Below, one piece after another: positions 46,667 through 57,350 of a stretch of DNA of 64,000 nt; within the stretch, counting starts at the first letter, position 1, and the number at the start of each line of letters is the position of its first letter. Under the pieces are notes generated by a model. That model was not told where the DNA came from, did not search any database, and saw nothing but the letters and a program-made list of their open reading frames with translations. The stretch is from a candidate division WOR-3 bacterium. GTDB lineage: Bacteria; Hydrothermota; Tepidihabitantia; Tepidihabitantales; Tepidihabitantaceae. A program made the translations under genes and the position numbers. Location: NCBI GenBank assembly GCA_965649205.1, contig CBFGJV010000007.1, positions 33,966 through 97,965 of the forward strand, in the 5' to 3' direction.

Positions 46667-47122
46667 ATGAGTAAGGTTAATCCTTGGCTGGTGCATTTAC
46701 GGAGTCTGCACAACGGGGAGAACAAGTTGGCTCTTGAGGTGGATATCGAAGATCTGGGCGGTACAGTGCGAGAGGTTGCTGAAAACCCTTTATTTGAGGC
46801 GTTGCTGGGACCCTTGGCGGCGAGGTTGTTGATTGTGAAGTCGGGAAGGGGCATCATGGTAAAGGGAAAGGTTGAATTCGAAGCGCGGTTGCGATGTGCG
46901 ATTTGTGGTCGGCTCTACGAGAGCAGTTTCTGTGAAGATTTGAGCTGTGAGTTTGTGAGTGAGGAAGAGAGGGAGATAGTAGAAAAAGAGTTGAATGGTG
47001 CAGAGCTTGAACAGGAATGGTTGCAGGGCGATATTTTGAATCTGGCGCGACCGCTAAGAGACACGATACATCTGGCTATACCTATAGCGCCGGTTTGTGG
47101 ACAGGAATGCGAGGTGGAATAA
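46667..47122 (+). CDS. DUF177/YceD family protein
   Basis: CAIC, LAIPIAPVCGQEC. Confidence 0.8.
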   Translation: MSKVNPWLVHLRSLHNGENKLALEVDIEDLGGTVREVAENPLFEALLGPLAARLLIVKSGRGIMVKGKVEFEARLRCAICGRLYESSFCEDLSCEFVSEEEREIVEKELNGAELEQEWLQGDILNLARPLRDTIHLAIPIAPVCGQECEVE

Positions 47123-48006
47123 TGAGCGTGAGAAGAAGAGTACGGTGTTTTTTATATTGGTGGCATGTTGAGTTCTCGCTAAGCCGAATTGTGTTGATTT
47201 GCCTGGCTTGGGGGCTCTGTCCAAGATTTGGTTATGCGATGTTCGAACGGAACTGGGCGACTGTGCGTGCTGAGGGTATGGGAGGTGCTTTTGTCGCCAT
47301 TGCTGATGACGCCGGAGCTGCTTTGTTGAACCCGGCGGGTCTTTACCAAGTGGACGTGCGGGAGTTTACCGGAGGGTACAAATGGCTTTACGGAGGAGTA
47401 GGTACAGATCTGCATTCGGCGAATGCCATTTTTTCACTGCCTGTGGCTAGAATTGGAACGACGAGTTTAGCTTTGGTGGAGACCGGGTTTGAACAACATT
47501 CAGAACGAACAGTGCGTCTAAGTCACGGTATAAGTCTCGCGGAAGGTCTGGCATTTGGATACGGTCTGTCGGGATACAATCTATATCAAAAGAATATAGG
47601 CTCTGGCTACGGGTTTGGGCTTGATTTGGGCATGCTTGCACGGGTTTACAGGATTTGGACGCTGGGTTTCTCGGCGCGCAATGTTAATTTGCCGCGTATC
47701 GGGAGAGGTGAGGAAGGAGAACTCCCCAGAATGCTTGTTTTTGGCGTGGGATATTCGCCTAGTCCGGGTATCCGCTCGGCCCTGGATTTGGAAAAGGAGC
47801 CGGGTAAGGGTACGCGTTTGCGGGTTGGCCAAGAACTACGCATTATTCAGGATCACCTTACTATTCGCGTCGGTGTAATTACGCTACCAGTCAGCTTTAC
47901 GTTTGGTTTCCGAGCTGGAGTCAGGTTTGCTAGTCTGGATTACGCTTTGGCGACGCATTCTGAGCTTGGACTGACGCACAGTTTTGGTGCCGTGTTGCAG
48001 TTCTGA
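47122..48006 (+). CDS. PorV/PorQ-like outer-membrane beta-barrel
   Basis: Signal peptide; RAEGMGGAFVAIADD...NPAGL; GLDLG; DYA...LG.TH; terminal F. Confidence 0.75.
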   Translation: MSVRRRVRCFLYWWHVEFSLSRIVLICLAWGLCPRFGYAMFERNWATVRAEGMGGAFVAIADDAGAALLNPAGLYQVDVREFTGGYKWLYGGVGTDLHSANAIFSLPVARIGTTSLALVETGFEQHSERTVRLSHGISLAEGLAFGYGLSGYNLYQKNIGSGYGFGLDLGMLARVYRIWTLGFSARNVNLPRIGRGEEGELPRMLVFGVGYSPSPGIRSALDLEKEPGKGTRLRVGQELRIIQDHLTIRVGVITLPVSFTFGFRAGVRFASLDYALATHSELGLTHSFGAVLQF

Positions 48007-48013
48007 AAATACA

Positions 48014-50539
48014 ATGAGAAACCGTTTCGCCATTCTATTCAGGGGAAGAGTCTGTCCTGACGACCCCGGACTTGGCCGGCCGTCGTGGAGCAGAAGTGAC
48101 GGCTGTTGGTTTTTGGTGTTGTTAGGGGCGATGTTCTGGCAGGTTTCGTCGGGTGCAGATAACTTTGCTATACCGAGTGGTCAATTGGATATTAACCGGG
48201 CGACAAGGGCGGAGATCATGCAGTTACCGCTTGACTCGGCGCTGGCCGAGCGTATCTGGGAATATCGACTGGACTACGGTCGTTTCAACAGTATTTACGA
48301 CCTGATGCAGGTCAAGGGCATGACGTCATCAACCCTCGAGGTACTCAAACCTCTGATCTATGTTTCGCCTTCGCCAGAAGATGAAGCCAGAGTACGTCTG
48401 GTGCATCGTCTTCAGAGACAGTTGGCTTCAGAAGAAGGGCCGACAGCGACTGCAGTAGAGGATTGGCAGGATTTGCTGATTACTCCCATGAATATCAATC
48501 GGGCCTCTATAGATGACCTGCTGGCTTTGCAAAACGTATCATTGGTTGATGCAGTTGCGGTTGCGAAGTATCTAAGGTCAGGCCAGACTTTTGCAGAACG
48601 CAGGGACCTCGCAAATCGCGTAACGGGCCTTTCCAGTTATGGTTATCGTAACATACGGAATTTTGTCACGTATCAGGATCCGCCGCCATTCGGATTCGGA
48701 GGAAACTACCGGCTGAGTTTTGGAACAGACCCGGAGTGGGAACTGACTGCTGGGCCAGGCGAGTTCAAGCAGGCCCTAGTAAAATTGCAACAAGATTCGG
48801 CTAAGTTTCGAGAAGCGGGTTTCACTCAGGATGAGATAGAGTACGTTCGGAGTCAGCTTGAAAAAGAACAACAGTATGTGGTCGGCCTCAAGAACCGGTC
48901 CAGCGTACGCAACCGGTTACGAGTTAGGGTTGGTGACTACGTTCGCGTCGGTGCCCGGCTGGAGAAAAAACTTTACGAATCCTGGAAACAGCAGGAGGTG
49001 CGCGGTTCAATTGGTGTGCAGCAGCTGGGGCCGTTGCGGAGGCTGTTTCTAGGAGATTTTCGTGTGGCTTTGGGCCAGGGGTTGCTGTTGGATAACAACC
49101 CAGAACTAAGGGCTAGGACATATGACCGGGCTCAGGGTATATTTTCGGACCTGTCTGAGAATCCTGGTTTTGAGTTTCGTGGTGGCGCAGCCGAGATAAT
49201 ATGGAATCGTCTAGGTCTTCTGGGCTTCTTTTCCAGCTCTAAGCGTGATGCAATACCTAATCCGGACGGCACAGTTAACTACTACATTATTACCACCCCG
49301 CGCTATCCGACTTTCAGAGATATTCTGGGCGAGAAGAATCTTGGCGGTAGTGTGCGATTCGACTTGTCAAATTTGACTTTCCTCCCTACTGGCACGCGAT
49401 TGAGTTTCAACACTCTGTCGGTCAGCTATGACCGCGAGATGAAGCCTGACCCTAGGTACCTTGATATGCCGGGAGACGCGGAAGTGTTGGGCGATCCTAA
49501 CTATCTTAGGTTAAGCCGGGTCAGAAAGCGTCTATTCTATGGGGCTGACGTGAGAATGGTGGTGGAGAATGTGTCCCTGGAAGGAGAAGTGGCCTTACAG
49601 CCTGACATCGCCAATGCGTTTCTGACTTCGGAACATATGGCGAAGGCGTATCTACTGAAAGCTAGAACCCAGTACAATTACCTGTACGTGACTGCATTGT
49701 ACCGGCATTATGATCTGGACTATGACAATCCCTATAATCGTGGTTACTGCGAACAATTGCGATTCGAAGACACGCCGCTAGAGAAATCGTACCGTGTAAT
49801 CGATCCGGGATATGCCGCTTTGCAGAACTCCCCCACTCCTAAAGCCGAAGAAGGGTTTCTTCTCGATACACGCTATCAGATTTCGCGACAGATTACATTT
49901 ACTCGTGTTTACATTGACGTCTGGCGCAATCTCGCCTGGGGCGTTGACAACTATCGTTTTCAAGGAGAAGTGGAGTGGAGACCTGTATTTCCAGTCAGGG
50001 TCAGGTTCAAGCAGAAGCTGCAGAGTAAAGGTTTGCCCAAGCCAGCTTTGTCTACTCGTTCTTTTACAATGGAGTCCTCGCTGCGCGTCATGGCTAGCCT
50101 TACAGACTGGGATTTCCTGACTGGGGAAGTGCGCGAAGGCAAGGTGTTCTTAACTCCGAGCATGCAGTATGCAGAGCGGGCGAGCATATCGGGTAATTTT
50201 CTGGCTATACAGTGGGATCACAATTTTTCCGACGATTTCAACGCCGAGCTGGGAATTGCTACCTGGTTGACACGGGGCATGTCGCAGTGGATATTCGAAG
50301 ACACCGGTATCGATTTTCTGGACGGAGACGGCCTCAAGTGGTACCTGGCGCTGTCAGACCGTATCTCAGAGAGGCTGCTACTGTACTTCAAAGCCAAGCA
50401 CAAAGTAAGCATCTACCCACACACCGGACTGGGTAACAACGAGAAAATACGCTATCCGGGAAGTTTGGAGCCGGTTCGTGACTTCATAAGCAGGGATAAT
50501 AGGTTTGCTATTAGTCTGCAGATGGACTTTTTTTGGTAA
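48014..50539 (+). CDS. Outer-membrane protein with two ComEA-like helix-hairpin-helix domains and C-terminal beta-barrel
   Basis: LDINRAT...AERIWEYR..GRFNSIYDLMQVKG; MNINRAS..DL; GDFRVALGQGL; amphipathic strands; ends SLQMDFFW. Confidence 0.8.
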   Translation: MRNRFAILFRGRVCPDDPGLGRPSWSRSDGCWFLVLLGAMFWQVSSGADNFAIPSGQLDINRATRAEIMQLPLDSALAERIWEYRLDYGRFNSIYDLMQVKGMTSSTLEVLKPLIYVSPSPEDEARVRLVHRLQRQLASEEGPTATAVEDWQDLLITPMNINRASIDDLLALQNVSLVDAVAVAKYLRSGQTFAERRDLANRVTGLSSYGYRNIRNFVTYQDPPPFGFGGNYRLSFGTDPEWELTAGPGEFKQALVKLQQDSAKFREAGFTQDEIEYVRSQLEKEQQYVVGLKNRSSVRNRLRVRVGDYVRVGARLEKKLYESWKQQEVRGSIGVQQLGPLRRLFLGDFRVALGQGLLLDNNPELRARTYDRAQGIFSDLSENPGFEFRGGAAEIIWNRLGLLGFFSSSKRDAIPNPDGTVNYYIITTPRYPTFRDILGEKNLGGSVRFDLSNLTFLPTGTRLSFNTLSVSYDREMKPDPRYLDMPGDAEVLGDPNYLRLSRVRKRLFYGADVRMVVENVSLEGEVALQPDIANAFLTSEHMAKAYLLKARTQYNYLYVTALYRHYDLDYDNPYNRGYCEQLRFEDTPLEKSYRVIDPGYAALQNSPTPKAEEGFLLDTRYQISRQITFTRVYIDVWRNLAWGVDNYRFQGEVEWRPVFPVRVRFKQKLQSKGLPKPALSTRSFTMESSLRVMASLTDWDFLTGEVREGKVFLTPSMQYAERASISGNFLAIQWDHNFSDDFNAELGIATWLTRGMSQWIFEDTGIDFLDGDGLKWYLALSDRISERLLLYFKAKHKVSIYPHTGLGNNEKIRYPGSLEPVRDFISRDNRFAISLQMDFFW

Positions 50540-50552
50540 GGAGAATAGGACA

Positions 50553-51749
50553 ATGATTGCAGATATTCATCGGGGAAAGTCTGGGAAACGGAGCGTGTTT
50601 TATGCTGCGTGTTTGATTCTGCTTCTTTTCTCTGGCTCGACGCATGCCTTGATGCCGCTGCGTAATTACTGGGGCGAACGAATAACAATTTACAGCGCGA
50701 GAGATTTGGCTTTTCTGGGAAGTTCGGGTCCGGGCTCCGGGGCAAGTATTCTGTTTAGTCGTCCGGCGCTGATGGGGGCCATGGTTAGACCGAGTTTGGA
50801 ACTCACCTATATGGCGAATATTGTTTCTGAGCAGCGTACGCGCACGGTTTACGATGAGTTCGAAAATACGCTTGGGGAAGCCATATTTGCAGACAACGTT
50901 ACGGCTGCCGGATTGCCCGGGCCTTTGGCTGTGAATTATCCCGTTTTGCGCGGGCTGGTGGTGGGTGCAGGTGTTGCCCGGATAGTTGATTTCCAGTACC
51001 GGTACAGGAAAGAATATCGAGATAATTTCTATGCTCTGGTTGGCGAGGATCGAATCGTGCAGACTGGTGAAATTTTCGTGGGTGGGGCAGGAGTTAGTTA
51101 TCGTCTGGCGGAGTGGTTGGCTGTGGGCGCAAGTGGCGGCTATGTTTCCGGCAGGAGAAATCTGGAGTCGTGGGAAATCAGAATTCCGGATACCACTTAT
51201 TGGTACGAGTCCGGGAAGCCTGAGGGTGTGGCTTATACGGGTAACATTGTGGTGGGTCTGAGCAGTCGAGTTCAGGGAAGTTTGGGATTCGTTGGTCCTC
51301 TTAAGCTGTTCAAATGGCAGACCTCTCCCGGTTCACGCGTCGACGTAGTATTGCCTTGGCGGGTATTGGCAGATGTGTCTTATAGAGCGGCAGGTAAACT
51401 GCCCAGCCGAGTATTACTGGAGGTTGGTTACAGTGCCTGGCGGTCCCTAGATAGTAACTATGCCGGGGTTCTGGACGTGCGGGCCGGGGTAGAGCATACG
51501 ATGCTTAACTTTGTAAAATTGCGCTACGGTTTTGGAATAGAGCCTTCACCATTTGATCCGACTATTCAGCGTGTGGGAGTAGGGACGGGGATTGGTCTGG
51601 ATGCTGGAGTTTGTTTTTTTGATTTCGGAGCGATGTTTCGACGTGAGGTGGTGGGGGATGGTCTTCTGCGTGGAGAGGTTACTCCAGAAGATCAGAAGGT
51701 GTATCAGACCGGTACCGTGCTGGGTATTACGGTCAGCAGGGGGTTTTAG
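50553..51749 (+). CDS. FadL/PorV-like outer-membrane beta-barrel
   Basis: SD AAGGAG; signal peptide; SARDLAF...RPAL; RAGVEH..LRYG; ends ITVSRGF. Confidence 0.65.
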   Translation: MIADIHRGKSGKRSVFYAACLILLLFSGSTHALMPLRNYWGERITIYSARDLAFLGSSGPGSGASILFSRPALMGAMVRPSLELTYMANIVSEQRTRTVYDEFENTLGEAIFADNVTAAGLPGPLAVNYPVLRGLVVGAGVARIVDFQYRYRKEYRDNFYALVGEDRIVQTGEIFVGGAGVSYRLAEWLAVGASGGYVSGRRNLESWEIRIPDTTYWYESGKPEGVAYTGNIVVGLSSRVQGSLGFVGPLKLFKWQTSPGSRVDVVLPWRVLADVSYRAAGKLPSRVLLEVGYSAWRSLDSNYAGVLDVRAGVEHTMLNFVKLRYGFGIEPSPFDPTIQRVGVGTGIGLDAGVCFFDFGAMFRREVVGDGLLRGEVTPEDQKVYQTGTVLGITVSRGF

Positions 51750-53294
51750 GTGCGCAGCCTGAAGTTGCGAACACGGTTCGGGTCTTGGTTGACTGTTCTG
51801 GTGTTGGCGCTTGGGCTTAATCTGGTCTTGGCTGGCGTTCAGCACATTTATATCGTTCATACGAATGATATCCACGGAGCTCTGCTGCCGGGAACGGCGT
51901 TCTGGTTGAATCCAGATTTTCCCCCGCCTCTGGCTAATGCGCCTGGTGCTTTGGTACTGATAAGGGAACTGCGAGAGGAAGCCGCCAGAAATGGATACGG
52001 TTTTCTCCTGCTTGATGCTGGCGATGTCTTCAGAGGGACGCCGTTGGGCGATTTTACCAGAGGACAGGCCATAGTTGATTATTTCAACCGTGCCGGGTAT
52101 GACGCTGTTGCTGTTGGTAATCACGATTTCGACGTAGGCTGGTGGACCTTGAAGGAGCTGGCGGACAGTTCTCAGATGCCCTGGATTTGTTCCAATTTGA
52201 AAGTGGCTGGTACAGATACGGCACCTGGTTTCTTGAAGCCGTATGTCCTGTTTGAGCGGGGTGGTATCAGAATAGGGGTGTTTAGTCTGGTCACCAAGTA
52301 CCTGCACGGCATGGTGACGGATAGCATGCTGGGCGACCACGAAGTGAGACCTTATGAGGAAGATACGAGGCGAGTGCTGGCTGCTTTGCGTGCTGCCGGG
52401 GCTGATATTATTGTTGGTCTCACGCATGTGGGAGAAAGACACGACAAGAGGCTGGCGGATTCTATCTACGGCATTGATGTGATTATCGGTGGGCATAGCC
52501 ATTCCGGCATCCAGCCGCCCTACACTGCGCCAGCCAGTCATACTATCATCCAGCAGGCATATAGTAAAGGTTCAGCCGTGGGTTTTCTCGACCTGACTAT
52601 TGATACGCAGACAAAGAAAATCGTTGGTTACACAGGACGTTTGATAAACACTTATGGAGAAGAAGTACCAAAGGACTTGGAGTATTTGGCGTATCTGGAG
52701 TCATTGAGGGTAAAGGCGGAAGCAGGATTTGACGTGGTGATCGGCAGGAGTGTGAGGGAGCTGACACGCAGTGGTATGGAAGAGTGTCCTGCCGGGAATC
52801 TTATTACCGATGCAATGCGTGAATACGCCCGAGCCGACATTGCGATGCACAATTCTGCTGGAATACGGGCCAATTTTCCCGAAGGAGATATTACCTACCG
52901 CCATGTGTATAATGTAGACATCTTCGGTAATACGCTAGTGGTAGGAACTTACACAGGAAAGCAAGTTTTGGAGATGCTGGAAGTATCCGTGAACGGACAT
53001 CATGCCATATTCCAGCTGTCGGGTGTGAAGATGACCTACACGAAGAAGAAACCTATTGGTTCCCGGGTCTTGTCTGTGACTGTTGGAGGCAGACCGCTGG
53101 ATTTGGAAGGAACCTATGTCGTGGCCTCCAATTCCTATCTAGCAGCGGGAAGCGGTGAGTATGCCGTGTTCGCTGCTGCGCAGGACCTAGAGGACACCTA
53201 TGTACCCTTGCGTGACGTCATCGCCCACTACATCCGCCGTCACTCGCCAGTGGATGCCCGGGTAGAGGGGCGCATCGTTCTGGTAGACAAATAG
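51750..53294 (+). CDS. Secreted bifunctional metallophosphatase / 5'-nucleotidase (UshA/CpdB family)
   Basis: Signal peptide; HTNDIHG, DAGD, GNHDFD, IIGGHSH, HNSAGIR. Confidence 0.92.
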   Translation: MRSLKLRTRFGSWLTVLVLALGLNLVLAGVQHIYIVHTNDIHGALLPGTAFWLNPDFPPPLANAPGALVLIRELREEAARNGYGFLLLDAGDVFRGTPLGDFTRGQAIVDYFNRAGYDAVAVGNHDFDVGWWTLKELADSSQMPWICSNLKVAGTDTAPGFLKPYVLFERGGIRIGVFSLVTKYLHGMVTDSMLGDHEVRPYEEDTRRVLAALRAAGADIIVGLTHVGERHDKRLADSIYGIDVIIGGHSHSGIQPPYTAPASHTIIQQAYSKGSAVGFLDLTIDTQTKKIVGYTGRLINTYGEEVPKDLEYLAYLESLRVKAEAGFDVVIGRSVRELTRSGMEECPAGNLITDAMREYARADIAMHNSAGIRANFPEGDITYRHVYNVDIFGNTLVVGTYTGKQVLEMLEVSVNGHHAIFQLSGVKMTYTKKKPIGSRVLSVTVGGRPLDLEGTYVVASNSYLAAGSGEYAVFAAAQDLEDTYVPLRDVIAHYIRRHSPVDARVEGRIVLVDK

Positions 53295-53311
53295 AACAAA
53301 GACTAATCGGT

Positions 53312-54925
53312 ATGTGGCCTATTCGGTCGGTGGACGACGTGGTTGTGCAGCGGATGGCTCAGACTGCTCAAGTTTCTCCTTTGATTGCGCGCATTTTATG
53401 GCTGCGCGGGGTAAGAGATGCAGAGGCTGTGCGACGTTGGCTTTCGCCTTCTTTTTCGGACTTGCACCCTTCGGTTTTGCTTCCTGATTACAAGCCTGCG
53501 GTGGAGAGAATCAGACAAGCTATTGCCGCAGGCGAAGGTATCTTGGTGTGGGGACACGACGATATGGACGGTATTTCTGCTACTTGCGTTCTCTATCGTT
53601 TACTTTCCGACTTGAGAGCCAACGTGAAGTTCTATGTGCCGGTTCGGGGAGTGGAAAAGCACGGTCTGTATGCTGAGAGAGCTCTGGCTTTCAAAGCGCA
53701 GGGCGTAAAGTTGATTGTGACAGTTGATTGTGGTATTACCAACATAAAGGATGTGGCCCAACTGAAGCGGGAAGGAGTGGACGTAGTCGTAACCGACCAT
53801 CACGAGGTCATAGAAGGTCTACCTGAAACAGTAGCAAGTGTGGATCCGAAGCGACCCGACTCGCTTTATCCCTACCGGGGTTTGGCTGGTGTAGGGGTGG
53901 CCTTGAAGCTCGGTATGGGTCTGGTTTCAGAAATGTTGGGTATAGGTTTTGCCAGTTTCTTTTCGACCCAACCTGATTTGGTAGTACTTGCGGTGCTGGG
54001 TACGATTGCTGACCGTGCTCCTCTCACGGGCGAAAATCGCACTCTGGTTATGTTGGGGATGAAGTTTCTTGACCGGGTTAGACAACCGGCTCTGCGATTG
54101 GTTGTTGAACGGTTGGCCAAATCTGGGACCCTGGTTCCTGCCAAGATGGTAGTTGAATTGCCCCAGTTGTTTGCGGCAGCCGAGGGAACCAGTGGGGTTG
54201 AGAATCTCCTCAGCCAAGACGAAGCACGGGTACGGGAGTGGTTGGACGTGTTAGAGAGACGAGCGGCGGCGTGGCGTGAGGAGGCGGCAAAGTCGCTGGA
54301 ACTTGCTTGGAGTCTGGCGCAGTTGGGCGATGGCATTGTGCTGGCGCGCAGTCGGGAGTTCGGTATACGTACACTGGGGTACTGTGCGACGCGGCTTAAA
54401 GAACGTTATCGGGTGCCAGCTCTGGTTATGGGATGGCGTGGCGATGCTTGGATAGGCGAAGGTAGAAGTGTTGAAGGCGTGAATTTGGTAGAAGTTCTGC
54501 GTGAATTTCGCCAGTACTTTATAGATTACGGGGGACATAAAGCTGCCGCTGGTTTCACCATTCTTGACGAAAAGGTGGAAGAATTTATTCGGGCTGTGGA
54601 GGCTTACGCCCACGAGAATATCGCACCCCGGTTGTCACCTGCGCCGGGGGTAGAAGCTGATGCAACTCTGCCGTTGGCCCAGTTTGATGTGGCGTTGCGA
54701 GCGCTGGCGCCTTTTGGTGAAGGTAATCCGGCCCCTTTGTTTGTTTCGGAGCCGGTAAGTCTGAAGCCGATTTCCGGGGGATGGGTTTGTTCTGCACGAC
54801 CTGAACTGTTGATTCGGCCGGCAAGGCCGGATTTGTGGACAGGGTCGGAGCCAGTGCTACTACTCTATACGATGGAAGATAGTGGCAACTTGCTGGTACT
54901 GGACGTAAAACCGGCCGCTGTCTAG
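53312..54925 (+). CDS. recJ: RecJ-like DHH family ssDNA exonuclease (divergent)
   Basis: GHDDMDG, TVDCG, TDHH, GTIAD, GGHKAAAG, PFGEGNP. Confidence 0.85.
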   Translation: MWPIRSVDDVVVQRMAQTAQVSPLIARILWLRGVRDAEAVRRWLSPSFSDLHPSVLLPDYKPAVERIRQAIAAGEGILVWGHDDMDGISATCVLYRLLSDLRANVKFYVPVRGVEKHGLYAERALAFKAQGVKLIVTVDCGITNIKDVAQLKREGVDVVVTDHHEVIEGLPETVASVDPKRPDSLYPYRGLAGVGVALKLGMGLVSEMLGIGFASFFSTQPDLVVLAVLGTIADRAPLTGENRTLVMLGMKFLDRVRQPALRLVVERLAKSGTLVPAKMVVELPQLFAAAEGTSGVENLLSQDEARVREWLDVLERRAAAWREEAAKSLELAWSLAQLGDGIVLARSREFGIRTLGYCATRLKERYRVPALVMGWRGDAWIGEGRSVEGVNLVEVLREFRQYFIDYGGHKAAAGFTILDEKVEEFIRAVEAYAHENIAPRLSPAPGVEADATLPLAQFDVALRALAPFGEGNPAPLFVSEPVSLKPISGGWVCSARPELLIRPARPDLWTGSEPVLLLYTMEDSGNLLVLDVKPAAV

Positions 54926-56868: not shown

Positions 56869-57350
56869 TGCCTGATGTCTATATAGGGCTCGGTTCCAAT
56901 CTGGGAGACCGTTTGGCTTATCTTGAACAAGCTGTAGCAGCTTTTTCTTCACTGGGAGCAGTACGCAGGTCTAGCTGGTATGAAACCGAGCCGGTGGGTA
57001 TGGTTGGGGCAGGTAGATTCCTGAACGGGGTTGTGAGACTGTCCTCAGTAAAGTCCGCCCGCGGACTTCTTTTCGCGCTTATGAACATTGAAAAAGAACT
57101 TGGGAGATGCCAAGTTGAACGTAAATCTTCAAGGACAATAGATCTGGATATTTTGCTTTACGGTTCAGAGGTGATAAATGAACCGGATCTGGAAATTCCT
57201 CACCCGCGGATGCATTTGCGGGCATTCGTGTTAATCCCATTGTGCGAGTTGGCTCCGCATTTGGTACACCCCCGTCTGAAACGGACAATGCGGGAATTAC
57301 TGGCCGGACTGGACATATCTGGTGTGGTTGCTTATCATTCAGCAGAATGA
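56868..57350 (+). CDS. folK: 2-amino-4-hydroxy-6-hydroxymethyldihydropteridine diphosphokinase
   Basis: GLGSNLGDR, YETEP, RTIDLDIL, PHPRM..RAFVL. Confidence 0.96.
   Translation: MPDVYIGLGSNLGDRLAYLEQAVAAFSSLGAVRRSSWYETEPVGMVGAGRFLNGVVRLSSVKSARGLLFALMNIEKELGRCQVERKSSRTIDLDILLYGSEVINEPDLEIPHPRMHLRAFVLIPLCELAPHLVHPRLKRTMRELLAGLDISGVVAYHSAE

Follow-up and report, generated by a model that had tools for sequence, protein, structure and literature searches.

A 64,000-nt window of a candidate division WOR-3 genome carries, at positions 47122–53294, four adjacent genes that form one inherited, well-bounded unit. On the likely reading, this unit is the core, at the outer membrane, of a system that feeds on extracellular DNA or RNA, with a predicted 24-strand barrel that would pass short fragments to the periplasm. 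The window is the whole stretch of DNA analysed; coordinates are positions within it, except where they follow G000 (the source genome) and a contig of that genome (C7, C23 and so on). The genes are B1 and B3, both encoding barrels, HB, encoding a helix-hairpin-helix (HhH)-barrel protein, and NT, encoding a nucleotidase; B1-HB-B3-NT is referred to as the core module, and the gene that follows it is RecJ2 (Table 1). A first-pass annotation of this DNA had described these five genes as co-oriented, with gaps of 7, 13, 0 and 17 nt, and as lying about 2.4 kb upstream of a deoxynucleoside kinase gene (dNK), and had read them as a module using DNA as a nutrient or as a new competence receptor. The layout was recovered exactly from the open reading frames, with dNK starting at 57347. 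The wider gene context does point to nucleic acid as a nutrient, but RecJ and dNK proved not to be members.

A four-gene unit conserved and lost together

Among 40 regions drawn from 37 related genomes, all but two kept the order B1-HB-B3-NT as far as the contig reached; in the two (loci L046 and L057) no B1 match was called although upstream DNA was present. A wider scan of GTDB genomes for HB, in which the best 80 of 171 stretches gave 79 loci (rich in Fermentibacterota and including some of the same WOR-3 genomes), was scored only at loci with enough flanking DNA: B1 preceded HB in 65 of 66, B3 followed in 68 of 71 and NT in 58 of 60. The search profiles were trained on these same loci, which inflates their scores and leaves positions unaffected. 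Because gene order is conserved across the 79 loci, the clustering is not due to chance, and the synteny spans WOR-3, Fermentibacterota, Edwardsbacteria, TA06, Eisenbacteria and records titled Cloacimonadota.

Presence and absence were compared across 61 whole related genomes, 38 with a strong HB match and 23 without; several are incomplete, and absence here means not found in those searched. HB-positive genomes contained B1 in 33 of 38 cases, B3 in 37 and NT in 37, vs 0, 0 and 1, respectively, of the 23 HB-negative genomes, the single NT exception being a genome of 86% completeness (G031) with NT at a contig start. In genome G030 (97% complete) exactly B1-HB-B3-NT is gone, and the flanks seen in its congeners G012, G020 and G026 are joined directly to recJ2-rlmI. 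Since this loss removed precisely these genes and left recJ2 behind, the unit comprises four genes. The three barrels and the nucleotidase grouped in the first-pass annotation are therefore conserved and lost together, both in the synteny survey and among the 61 genomes.

RecJ2 is RecJ-like as first described (Pfam DHH and DHHA1), but it is retained in 19 of 23 HB-negative genomes vs 34 of 38 HB-positive ones, and at 48 GTDB-scan loci recJ was nearby in 10 and dNK in none. Its score against TIGR00644 (310.8 bits) is under the cut-off of 396.9, and a canonical RecJ (543.5 bits) is encoded elsewhere on the same contig (G000:C7:22313–24070). Two RecJ paralogs are present in most genomes of the order, and an rlmI-like methyltransferase gene often comes after the shorter one, RecJ2. 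RecJ2, dNK, rlmI, yceD, moxR and fbp were all rejected as module members by gene order and presence/absence data. The packing of unrelated genes into one operon, a caveat attached to the earlier reading, holds for recJ2, rlmI and dNK, and fbp, moxR and yceD (whose stop is overlapped by the B1 ATG) share the run without travelling with the core. As an explanation of the core itself it is extremely unlikely and largely refuted by the order kept across several phyla, the clean four-gene loss and the co-loss of unlinked partners described below. The GC content of 47122–54925 is the same as that of the remainder of the window, and a promoter and terminator scan gave counts close to shuffle means (13 vs 10.9; 20 vs 14.7).

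Table 1 Coordinates of the core module, its neighbour RecJ2 and two unlinked co-inherited genes.
Feature	Position	Strand	Remarks
B1, PorV-like small outer-membrane barrel	47122..48006	+	294 aa, signal-like N-terminus
HB, exported HhH-barrel protein: two degenerate (HhH)2 domains ahead of a barrel predicted to have 24 strands	48014..50539	+	841 aa
HhH domain 1 of HB	48185..48364	+	ComEA fold; second Gly of GIG and K62/K63 missing
HhH domain 2 of HB	48482..48670	+	Better conserved of the two; Asp in the place of ComEA K63
Barrel domain of HB	48695..50536	+	AlphaFold2 model; polar faces with a conserved Arg/Lys excess
B3, FadL-fold outer-membrane barrel related to BamG	50553..51749	+	398 aa
NT, UshA/CD73-family metallophosphoesterase (5'-nucleotidase-like), predicted periplasmic	51750..53294	+	514 aa, GTG start
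RecJ2, second RecJ-family DHH nuclease	53312..54925	+	537 aa; adjacent, outside the co-inherited module
OB-fold/DUF5689 surface protein, tail of type IX secretion system (T9SS) type	G000:C23:20137-22416		Paired with the binding protein, unlinked to the module
CUT1 ABC phosphate-ester-type binding protein	G000:C23:22413-23732		Beside the OB/DUF5689 gene

The HhH-barrel protein and its companion barrels

The description of HB as two HhH stretches followed by a large barrel with an aromatic C-terminus was borne out by Pfam (HHH_3 in two stretches, 63.4 bits vs a cut-off of 27) and by an AlphaFold2 model of residues 58–841 built from 109 sequences (predicted local distance difference test (pLDDT) 90.7, predicted template modelling score 0.86), in whose secondary structure 24 membrane strands were counted. 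Because the strand number is even, the HhH domains come before strand 1 and the C-terminus is aromatic, these domains are predicted to face the periplasm or the lumen, so that DNA binding by them at the outer surface is not supported. The best wide structural matches, the ushers FimD (Z 15.1, root-mean-square deviation (rmsd) 4.9, 371 aligned) and PapC (Z 14.4, rmsd 5.0, 357 aligned), were tied with other barrels, and Foldseek and VIA searches with the whole model returned generic large barrels only and no close solved relative, a result that does not in itself make the fold new. The family is discrete, with 191 clusters (50% identity) at E ≤ 1e-30; its named close homologs belong to candidate division WOR-3, and its look-alikes in the Atlas come most often from WOR-3, Fidelibacterota and Cloacimonadota. 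Conserved Arg/Lys outnumber Asp/Glu on the polar strand faces of HB (23 vs 13 among 150 positions), compared with 2 basic vs 4 acidic among 87 positions in the control barrel B3, and such basic faces, as modelled, would suit a polyanion path. HB has no TonB-receptor or plug match in Pfam or NCBIfam at E ≤ 0.1. The HB start (48014–48130) gives an unusual 30-residue stretch ahead of the signal-like segment, and because most homologs begin nearer the HhH domain the true start may lie downstream. One homolog, P0115 (1251 aa), is fused behind ~430 residues of TolB-like and TPR-like sequence.

HhH domain 1 superimposes on ComEA (8dss; Z 11.6, rmsd 1.2, 61 residues), placing it in the (HhH)2 fold, and the two domains retain the counterpart of Geobacillus ComEA K201 in 101 and 97 of 109 sequences, respectively. 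HB differs from ComEA in carrying the domains in tandem, in fusing them to a barrel and in having lost the GIG glycine and K62/K63. Neither domain has the second GIG glycine in any of 109 sequences. At the K63-equivalent, domain 1 shows K/R in 10 of 109 (where the register is approximate, with a one-residue gap) and domain 2 in 0 of 109, 105 of which carry Asp/Glu there. In Vibrio cholerae ComEA, transformation is lost with K63E, G60E or G60V and DNA binding with K62/63A (PMC3879209, partial text), and Geobacillus likewise needs the corresponding lysine (PMC9747964, partial text). The ComEA-type DNA binding first proposed for these domains is thus not upheld, and the missing residues call into doubt the database name 'ComEA-like' for HhH-barrel proteins. 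The K63 criterion is weaker in this lineage, because the stand-alone ComEA of the source genome and a nucleotidase-HhH fusion, both of which keep GIG, also lack the K63 lysine. Domain 2 has a strongly conserved pattern of its own and might gate or plug the barrel; mutual-information covariation across 212 HB sequences mostly reflected lineage. The HhH region also gave a weak T2SSK_1st match.

These features bear on whether HB is a competence receptor, a pore that has a ComEA built in and pulls in intact DNA without a pilus, with NT recycling the degraded strand. The fusion of a ComEA fold to a large barrel, the kept K201-equivalent and the presence of ComEC would fit, as would the finding that proteins with DUF5689, a domain met again below, are essential for transformation of Riemerella (PMC8459023, partial text). 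We nevertheless consider it distinctly unlikely: the GIG glycine and K63, substitution of which disables V. cholerae ComEA, are missing; the co-inherited genes are degradative or encode small-solute importers; and no comEC label occurred among the neighbour clusters inspected, which were annotated in part. A new receptor is also not needed, contrary to the earlier alternative, because the source genome has parts of the standard competence route (secretin, PilT, prepilin peptidase, PilC, five pilin-like genes, a GIG-bearing ComEA and ComEC). The stand-alone comEA overlaps the stop of sprA (G000:C16:47776–53693), which connects type IX secretion with DNA handling a second time. A second HhH match (G000:C10:84204–85931; L061 10205–11932, minus strand) was considered as a Bacteroidota-type barrel and rejected; it is a nucleotidase-like protein of 575 aa, with a weak 5'-nucleotidase C-domain match and a C-terminal ComEA-type HhH that keeps GIG.

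Both companion barrels resemble adaptors of the FadL-like superfamily. B1 proved PorV-like as first described, with a weak PorV_fam match (34.2 bits against NF033709, under the cut-off of 90) and PorV (6h3i, E 7.3e-7) as the top PDB match of its family profile. PorV acts as an adaptor in the T9SS, and B1 would correspondingly be a dock for a T9SS-sorted surface protein, the binding of the cargo sorting domain being suggested by the adjacency of B1 to a tail-bearing gene in distant loci. The FadL/PorV-like character ascribed to B3 was recovered in its AlphaFold2 model (pLDDT 95.9), which has a FadL fold with an N-terminal hatch and aligns with FadL and BamG at Foldseek template modelling scores of 0.67–0.74, FadL being the top fold match. 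The window's own B3 sequence has no Pfam or NCBIfam match, and 71 of 86 orthologs match NCBIfam BamG (NF053685) weakly, the best at E 2.5e-22, without reaching the 250-bit equivalog cut-off; BamG is also their best PDB sequence match. In bacteria of the Fibrobacterota–Chlorobiota–Bacteroidota (FCB) superphylum, FadL-family barrels serve as adaptors beside large barrels, as BamG does on BamA (PMC12611786, partial text), and by analogy B3 is probably an adaptor subunit. The absence of B3 from the 23 genomes in which HB was not found argues against a general role in the β-barrel assembly machinery. Unlike PorV and BamG, B1 and B3 score far under the cut-offs and are co-inherited with HB rather than placed beside sprA or bamA.

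The source genome also encodes HB2, a 583-aa single-HhH barrel beside a PorV-like gene (G000:C17:43152–45598; L060 7153–9599, minus strand). HB2 is homologous to HB across the barrel (hhalign 99.9%, E 3.7e-32, 522 columns), its HhH likewise lacks GIG, and its look-alikes are commonest in Bacteroidota and Spirochaetota. It occurs in 50 of 61 genomes, module-less ones included, and is not co-lost with the module.

The adaptor-like barrels allow HB, B1 and B3 to be seen as a display platform with no pore, anchoring or assembling T9SS-secreted binders and nucleases, with HhH domains making protein contacts as in GspK and products entering through other porins; such a platform would still serve nucleic-acid use. 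The PorV-like and BamG-like companions, the adaptor role of FadL-family barrels in FCB bacteria, the ushers at the top of the HB structural matches, the T2SSK_1st match, the loss of the HhH DNA-binding residues and the pairing of HB2 with a PorV-like gene but no adjoining nucleotidase all agree with it. Against it, unrelated barrels score as high as the ushers, whose match is explained by size alone, HB is inherited along with a periplasmic nucleotidase, the source genome has its own SprA translocon and the polar faces of HB are more basic than those of B3. On balance we regard a platform without a pore as unlikely.

The nucleotidase and the wider co-inherited set

The fourth gene had been called a 5'-nucleotidase with a signal peptide, and NT has Metallophos and 5_nucleotid_C domains, with the dimetal ligands and the catalytic His, behind an N-terminal hydrophobic stretch. 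Twelve positions are at least 90% conserved in 79 sequences (D40, H42, D92, N124, H125, H226, H249, H251, R340, N368, R373 and F392), and all dimetal-site and main substrate-pocket positions are kept; these roles are presumed from the UshA/CD73 family. NT is predicted to be periplasmic because a possible lipobox occurs in just 2 of 79 sequences. Its best PDB match is the 5'-nucleotidase 2z1a (E 6.5e-55). It shares both domains with UshA and CD73, but falls under every NCBIfam equivalog cut-off (UshA 196.5 vs 600, SoxB 162.8 vs 550), and some distant loci have the N-terminal domain only. NT is predicted to act on nucleotides, its sequence leaving both 5' and 3'/cyclic specificity possible. At five loci (L072, L093, L098, L129 and L141) NT is shortened to its N-terminal domain (~300 aa) and a Nuc-like single-domain PLD gene lies between B3 and NT.

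Further genes, unlinked in the source genome, follow the module. The OB/DUF5689 surface protein (DUF5689 match 48.4 bits vs a cut-off of 28.6) was found in 36 of 38 HB-positive vs 1 of 23 HB-negative genomes, and the ortholog of the adjacent binding protein, told from a paralog by score and position, in 35 of 38 vs 1 of 23, the sole exception again being G031. In distant loci the OB/DUF5689 gene is directly upstream of B1 in 42 of 52 cases (8 of the 10 exceptions being WOR-3-type), and the CUT1 binding-protein gene is upstream in 38 of 52. DUF5689 is also a domain of DdbD of Bacteroides thetaiotaomicron (PMC12478041, partial text) and of Riemerella RA0C_RS04920 (PMC8459023, partial text). T9SS export is available, because the source genome has SprA. 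The best PDB matches of the binding protein are the 7c0f series (125 bits), ahead of Escherichia coli UgpB (98 bits). We take the 7c0f entries to be the Thermus U3G dinucleotide-binding protein. Such a Thermus protein, related to UgpB, is described in PMC12718374, the part of which consulted gives no PDB identifiers. A second phosphate-ester-type ABC binding protein (G000:C11:53066–54319, ~50% identical) is kept also in genomes without the module.

Degradative genes form a more variable layer. An SNase-OB protein occurs in 18 of 61 genomes (16 HB-positive, G031 and G059) and a two-domain PLD protein in 23 (21 HB-positive, G031 and, as a weak match, G045); both are candidates for exported nucleases and track the module within family f1. 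Elsewhere, genes for Nuc-like PLD (5 loci) or metallo-beta-lactamase-fold proteins (2 loci) are inserted between B3 and NT. At loci L041–L050 (family f5), L052, L085, L089 and L095, NT is followed by a gene for a PHP-domain protein with a T9SS tail, usually then by a second PorV-like gene, suggesting cargo-adaptor pairs.

Several of these parts recall scavenging of phospholipids or glycerophosphodiesters, in which B3 would be a FadL-type lipid channel, PLD and PHP proteins would cut head groups and a UgpB-like ABC transporter would import glycerol phosphate. FadL is the top fold match of B3, the binding protein matches the UgpB NCBI model (114.8 bits, under the cut-off of 411) and the matches of the PLD proteins include MitoPLD/Zucchini besides Nuc. 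This account is very unlikely, as it leaves the OB/DUF5689 protein, the SNase, the HhH fold and the 5'-nucleotidase unexplained, and the binding protein is nearer to the 7c0f series than to UgpB. An explanation by auxotrophy was rejected, since purD (55 of 61 genomes) and pyrB (56 of 61) are present irrespective of the module. Because these genes are module-independent and the type IV pilus, ComEA and ComEC are separate, feeding fits better than need or competence.

Proposed route and relation to known systems

The gene order, the co-loss, the modelled folds and the conserved catalytic residues are observations; each step of the following route for nucleic-acid foraging is inferred. The T9SS-sorted OB/DUF5689 protein, held outside, probably on B1, would bind nucleic acid, which exported SNase- or PLD-family enzymes would cut. 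Oligonucleotides or nucleotides would then cross the basic HB lumen, which has no TonB plug, driven by their removal on the inner side, with the degenerate HhH domains as a gate or holding site rather than a ComEA ratchet and B3 as an adaptor barrel, as BamG is on BamA. Periplasmic NT would free phosphate and nucleosides, and the CUT1 ABC transporter with its phosphate-ester-type binding protein would import nucleotides or dinucleotides.

Several observations weigh against this route. The 61 genomes are kin, so that the co-loss reflects few independent loss events. HB carries no direct sequence sign of nucleic-acid binding, because the HhH residues that ComEA needs are missing, and its conserved basic residues could instead hold a plug, the lumen side having been assigned from alternation and not from coordinates. 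Pfam detected no catalytic domain in the OB/DUF5689 protein, the module cluster of the window contains no nuclease gene, and the SNase-OB and PLD proteins were unmatched in the ten HB-positive genomes of family f5. The link of the binding protein to dinucleotides depends on unconfirmed identifiers for the 7c0f entries, and the PLD, PHP, FadL-fold and UgpB-like parts would suit phospholipid scavenging too.

The closest characterised counterpart is ddbABCDEF of B. thetaiotaomicron, which combines a surface DUF5689 binder, an outer-membrane transporter and exported nucleases in an arrangement like a polysaccharide utilisation locus (PMC12478041, partial text); the module shares the DUF5689 binder and has candidates for the other two. 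The ddb system is anchored on the TonB-dependent DdbC and on lipoproteins, whereas the transporter candidate of the module described here is an HhH-fused barrel, predicted to have 24 strands, without a TonB or plug match. Its DUF5689 protein ends in a tail of T9SS type, a 5'-nucleotidase, an ABC transporter and two adaptor-like barrels belong to the set, and the candidate nucleases are unlinked or variable. Because its anchor is not a TonB-dependent transporter, the module is not a ddb member, and its candidate transporter family differs from the TonB-dependent ddb route, the characterised one of this superphylum in the literature consulted. In Riemerella anatipestifer, RA0C_RS04915, RA0C_RS04920 and RA0C_RS02645 provide a non-pilus outer-membrane route that also relies on a barrel together with DUF5689 and HhH proteins, but there, compared by description, a DdbC homolog serves as the barrel and the HhH domain is on a protein of its own, predicted to be periplasmic (PMC8459023, partial text). 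No published description of the HB/HB2 family or of the module was found in the open literature searched, subscription papers and supplements lying outside that search. More tentatively, HB could be a new class of nucleic-acid channel, 24-stranded, TonB-independent and HhH-gated, with PorV-/BamG-like adaptors coupling type IX secretion to DNA or RNA import, and as such the feeding counterpart of the more widespread pair of HhH-barrel and PorV-like protein; we hold this possible, if somewhat short of probable.

Which organisms eat extracellular DNA in anoxic habitats, and how DNA crosses the outer membrane without pili, are largely open questions. For these, co-loss defines a parts list (a surface binder, a candidate pore with adaptors, a nucleotidase, candidate nucleases and an ABC binding protein), and the module gives a first functional lead for the HhH-barrel proteins labelled ComEA-like in databases. 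If the reading of HB as a channel is true, several uncultured phyla would be dedicated consumers of extracellular nucleic acid.

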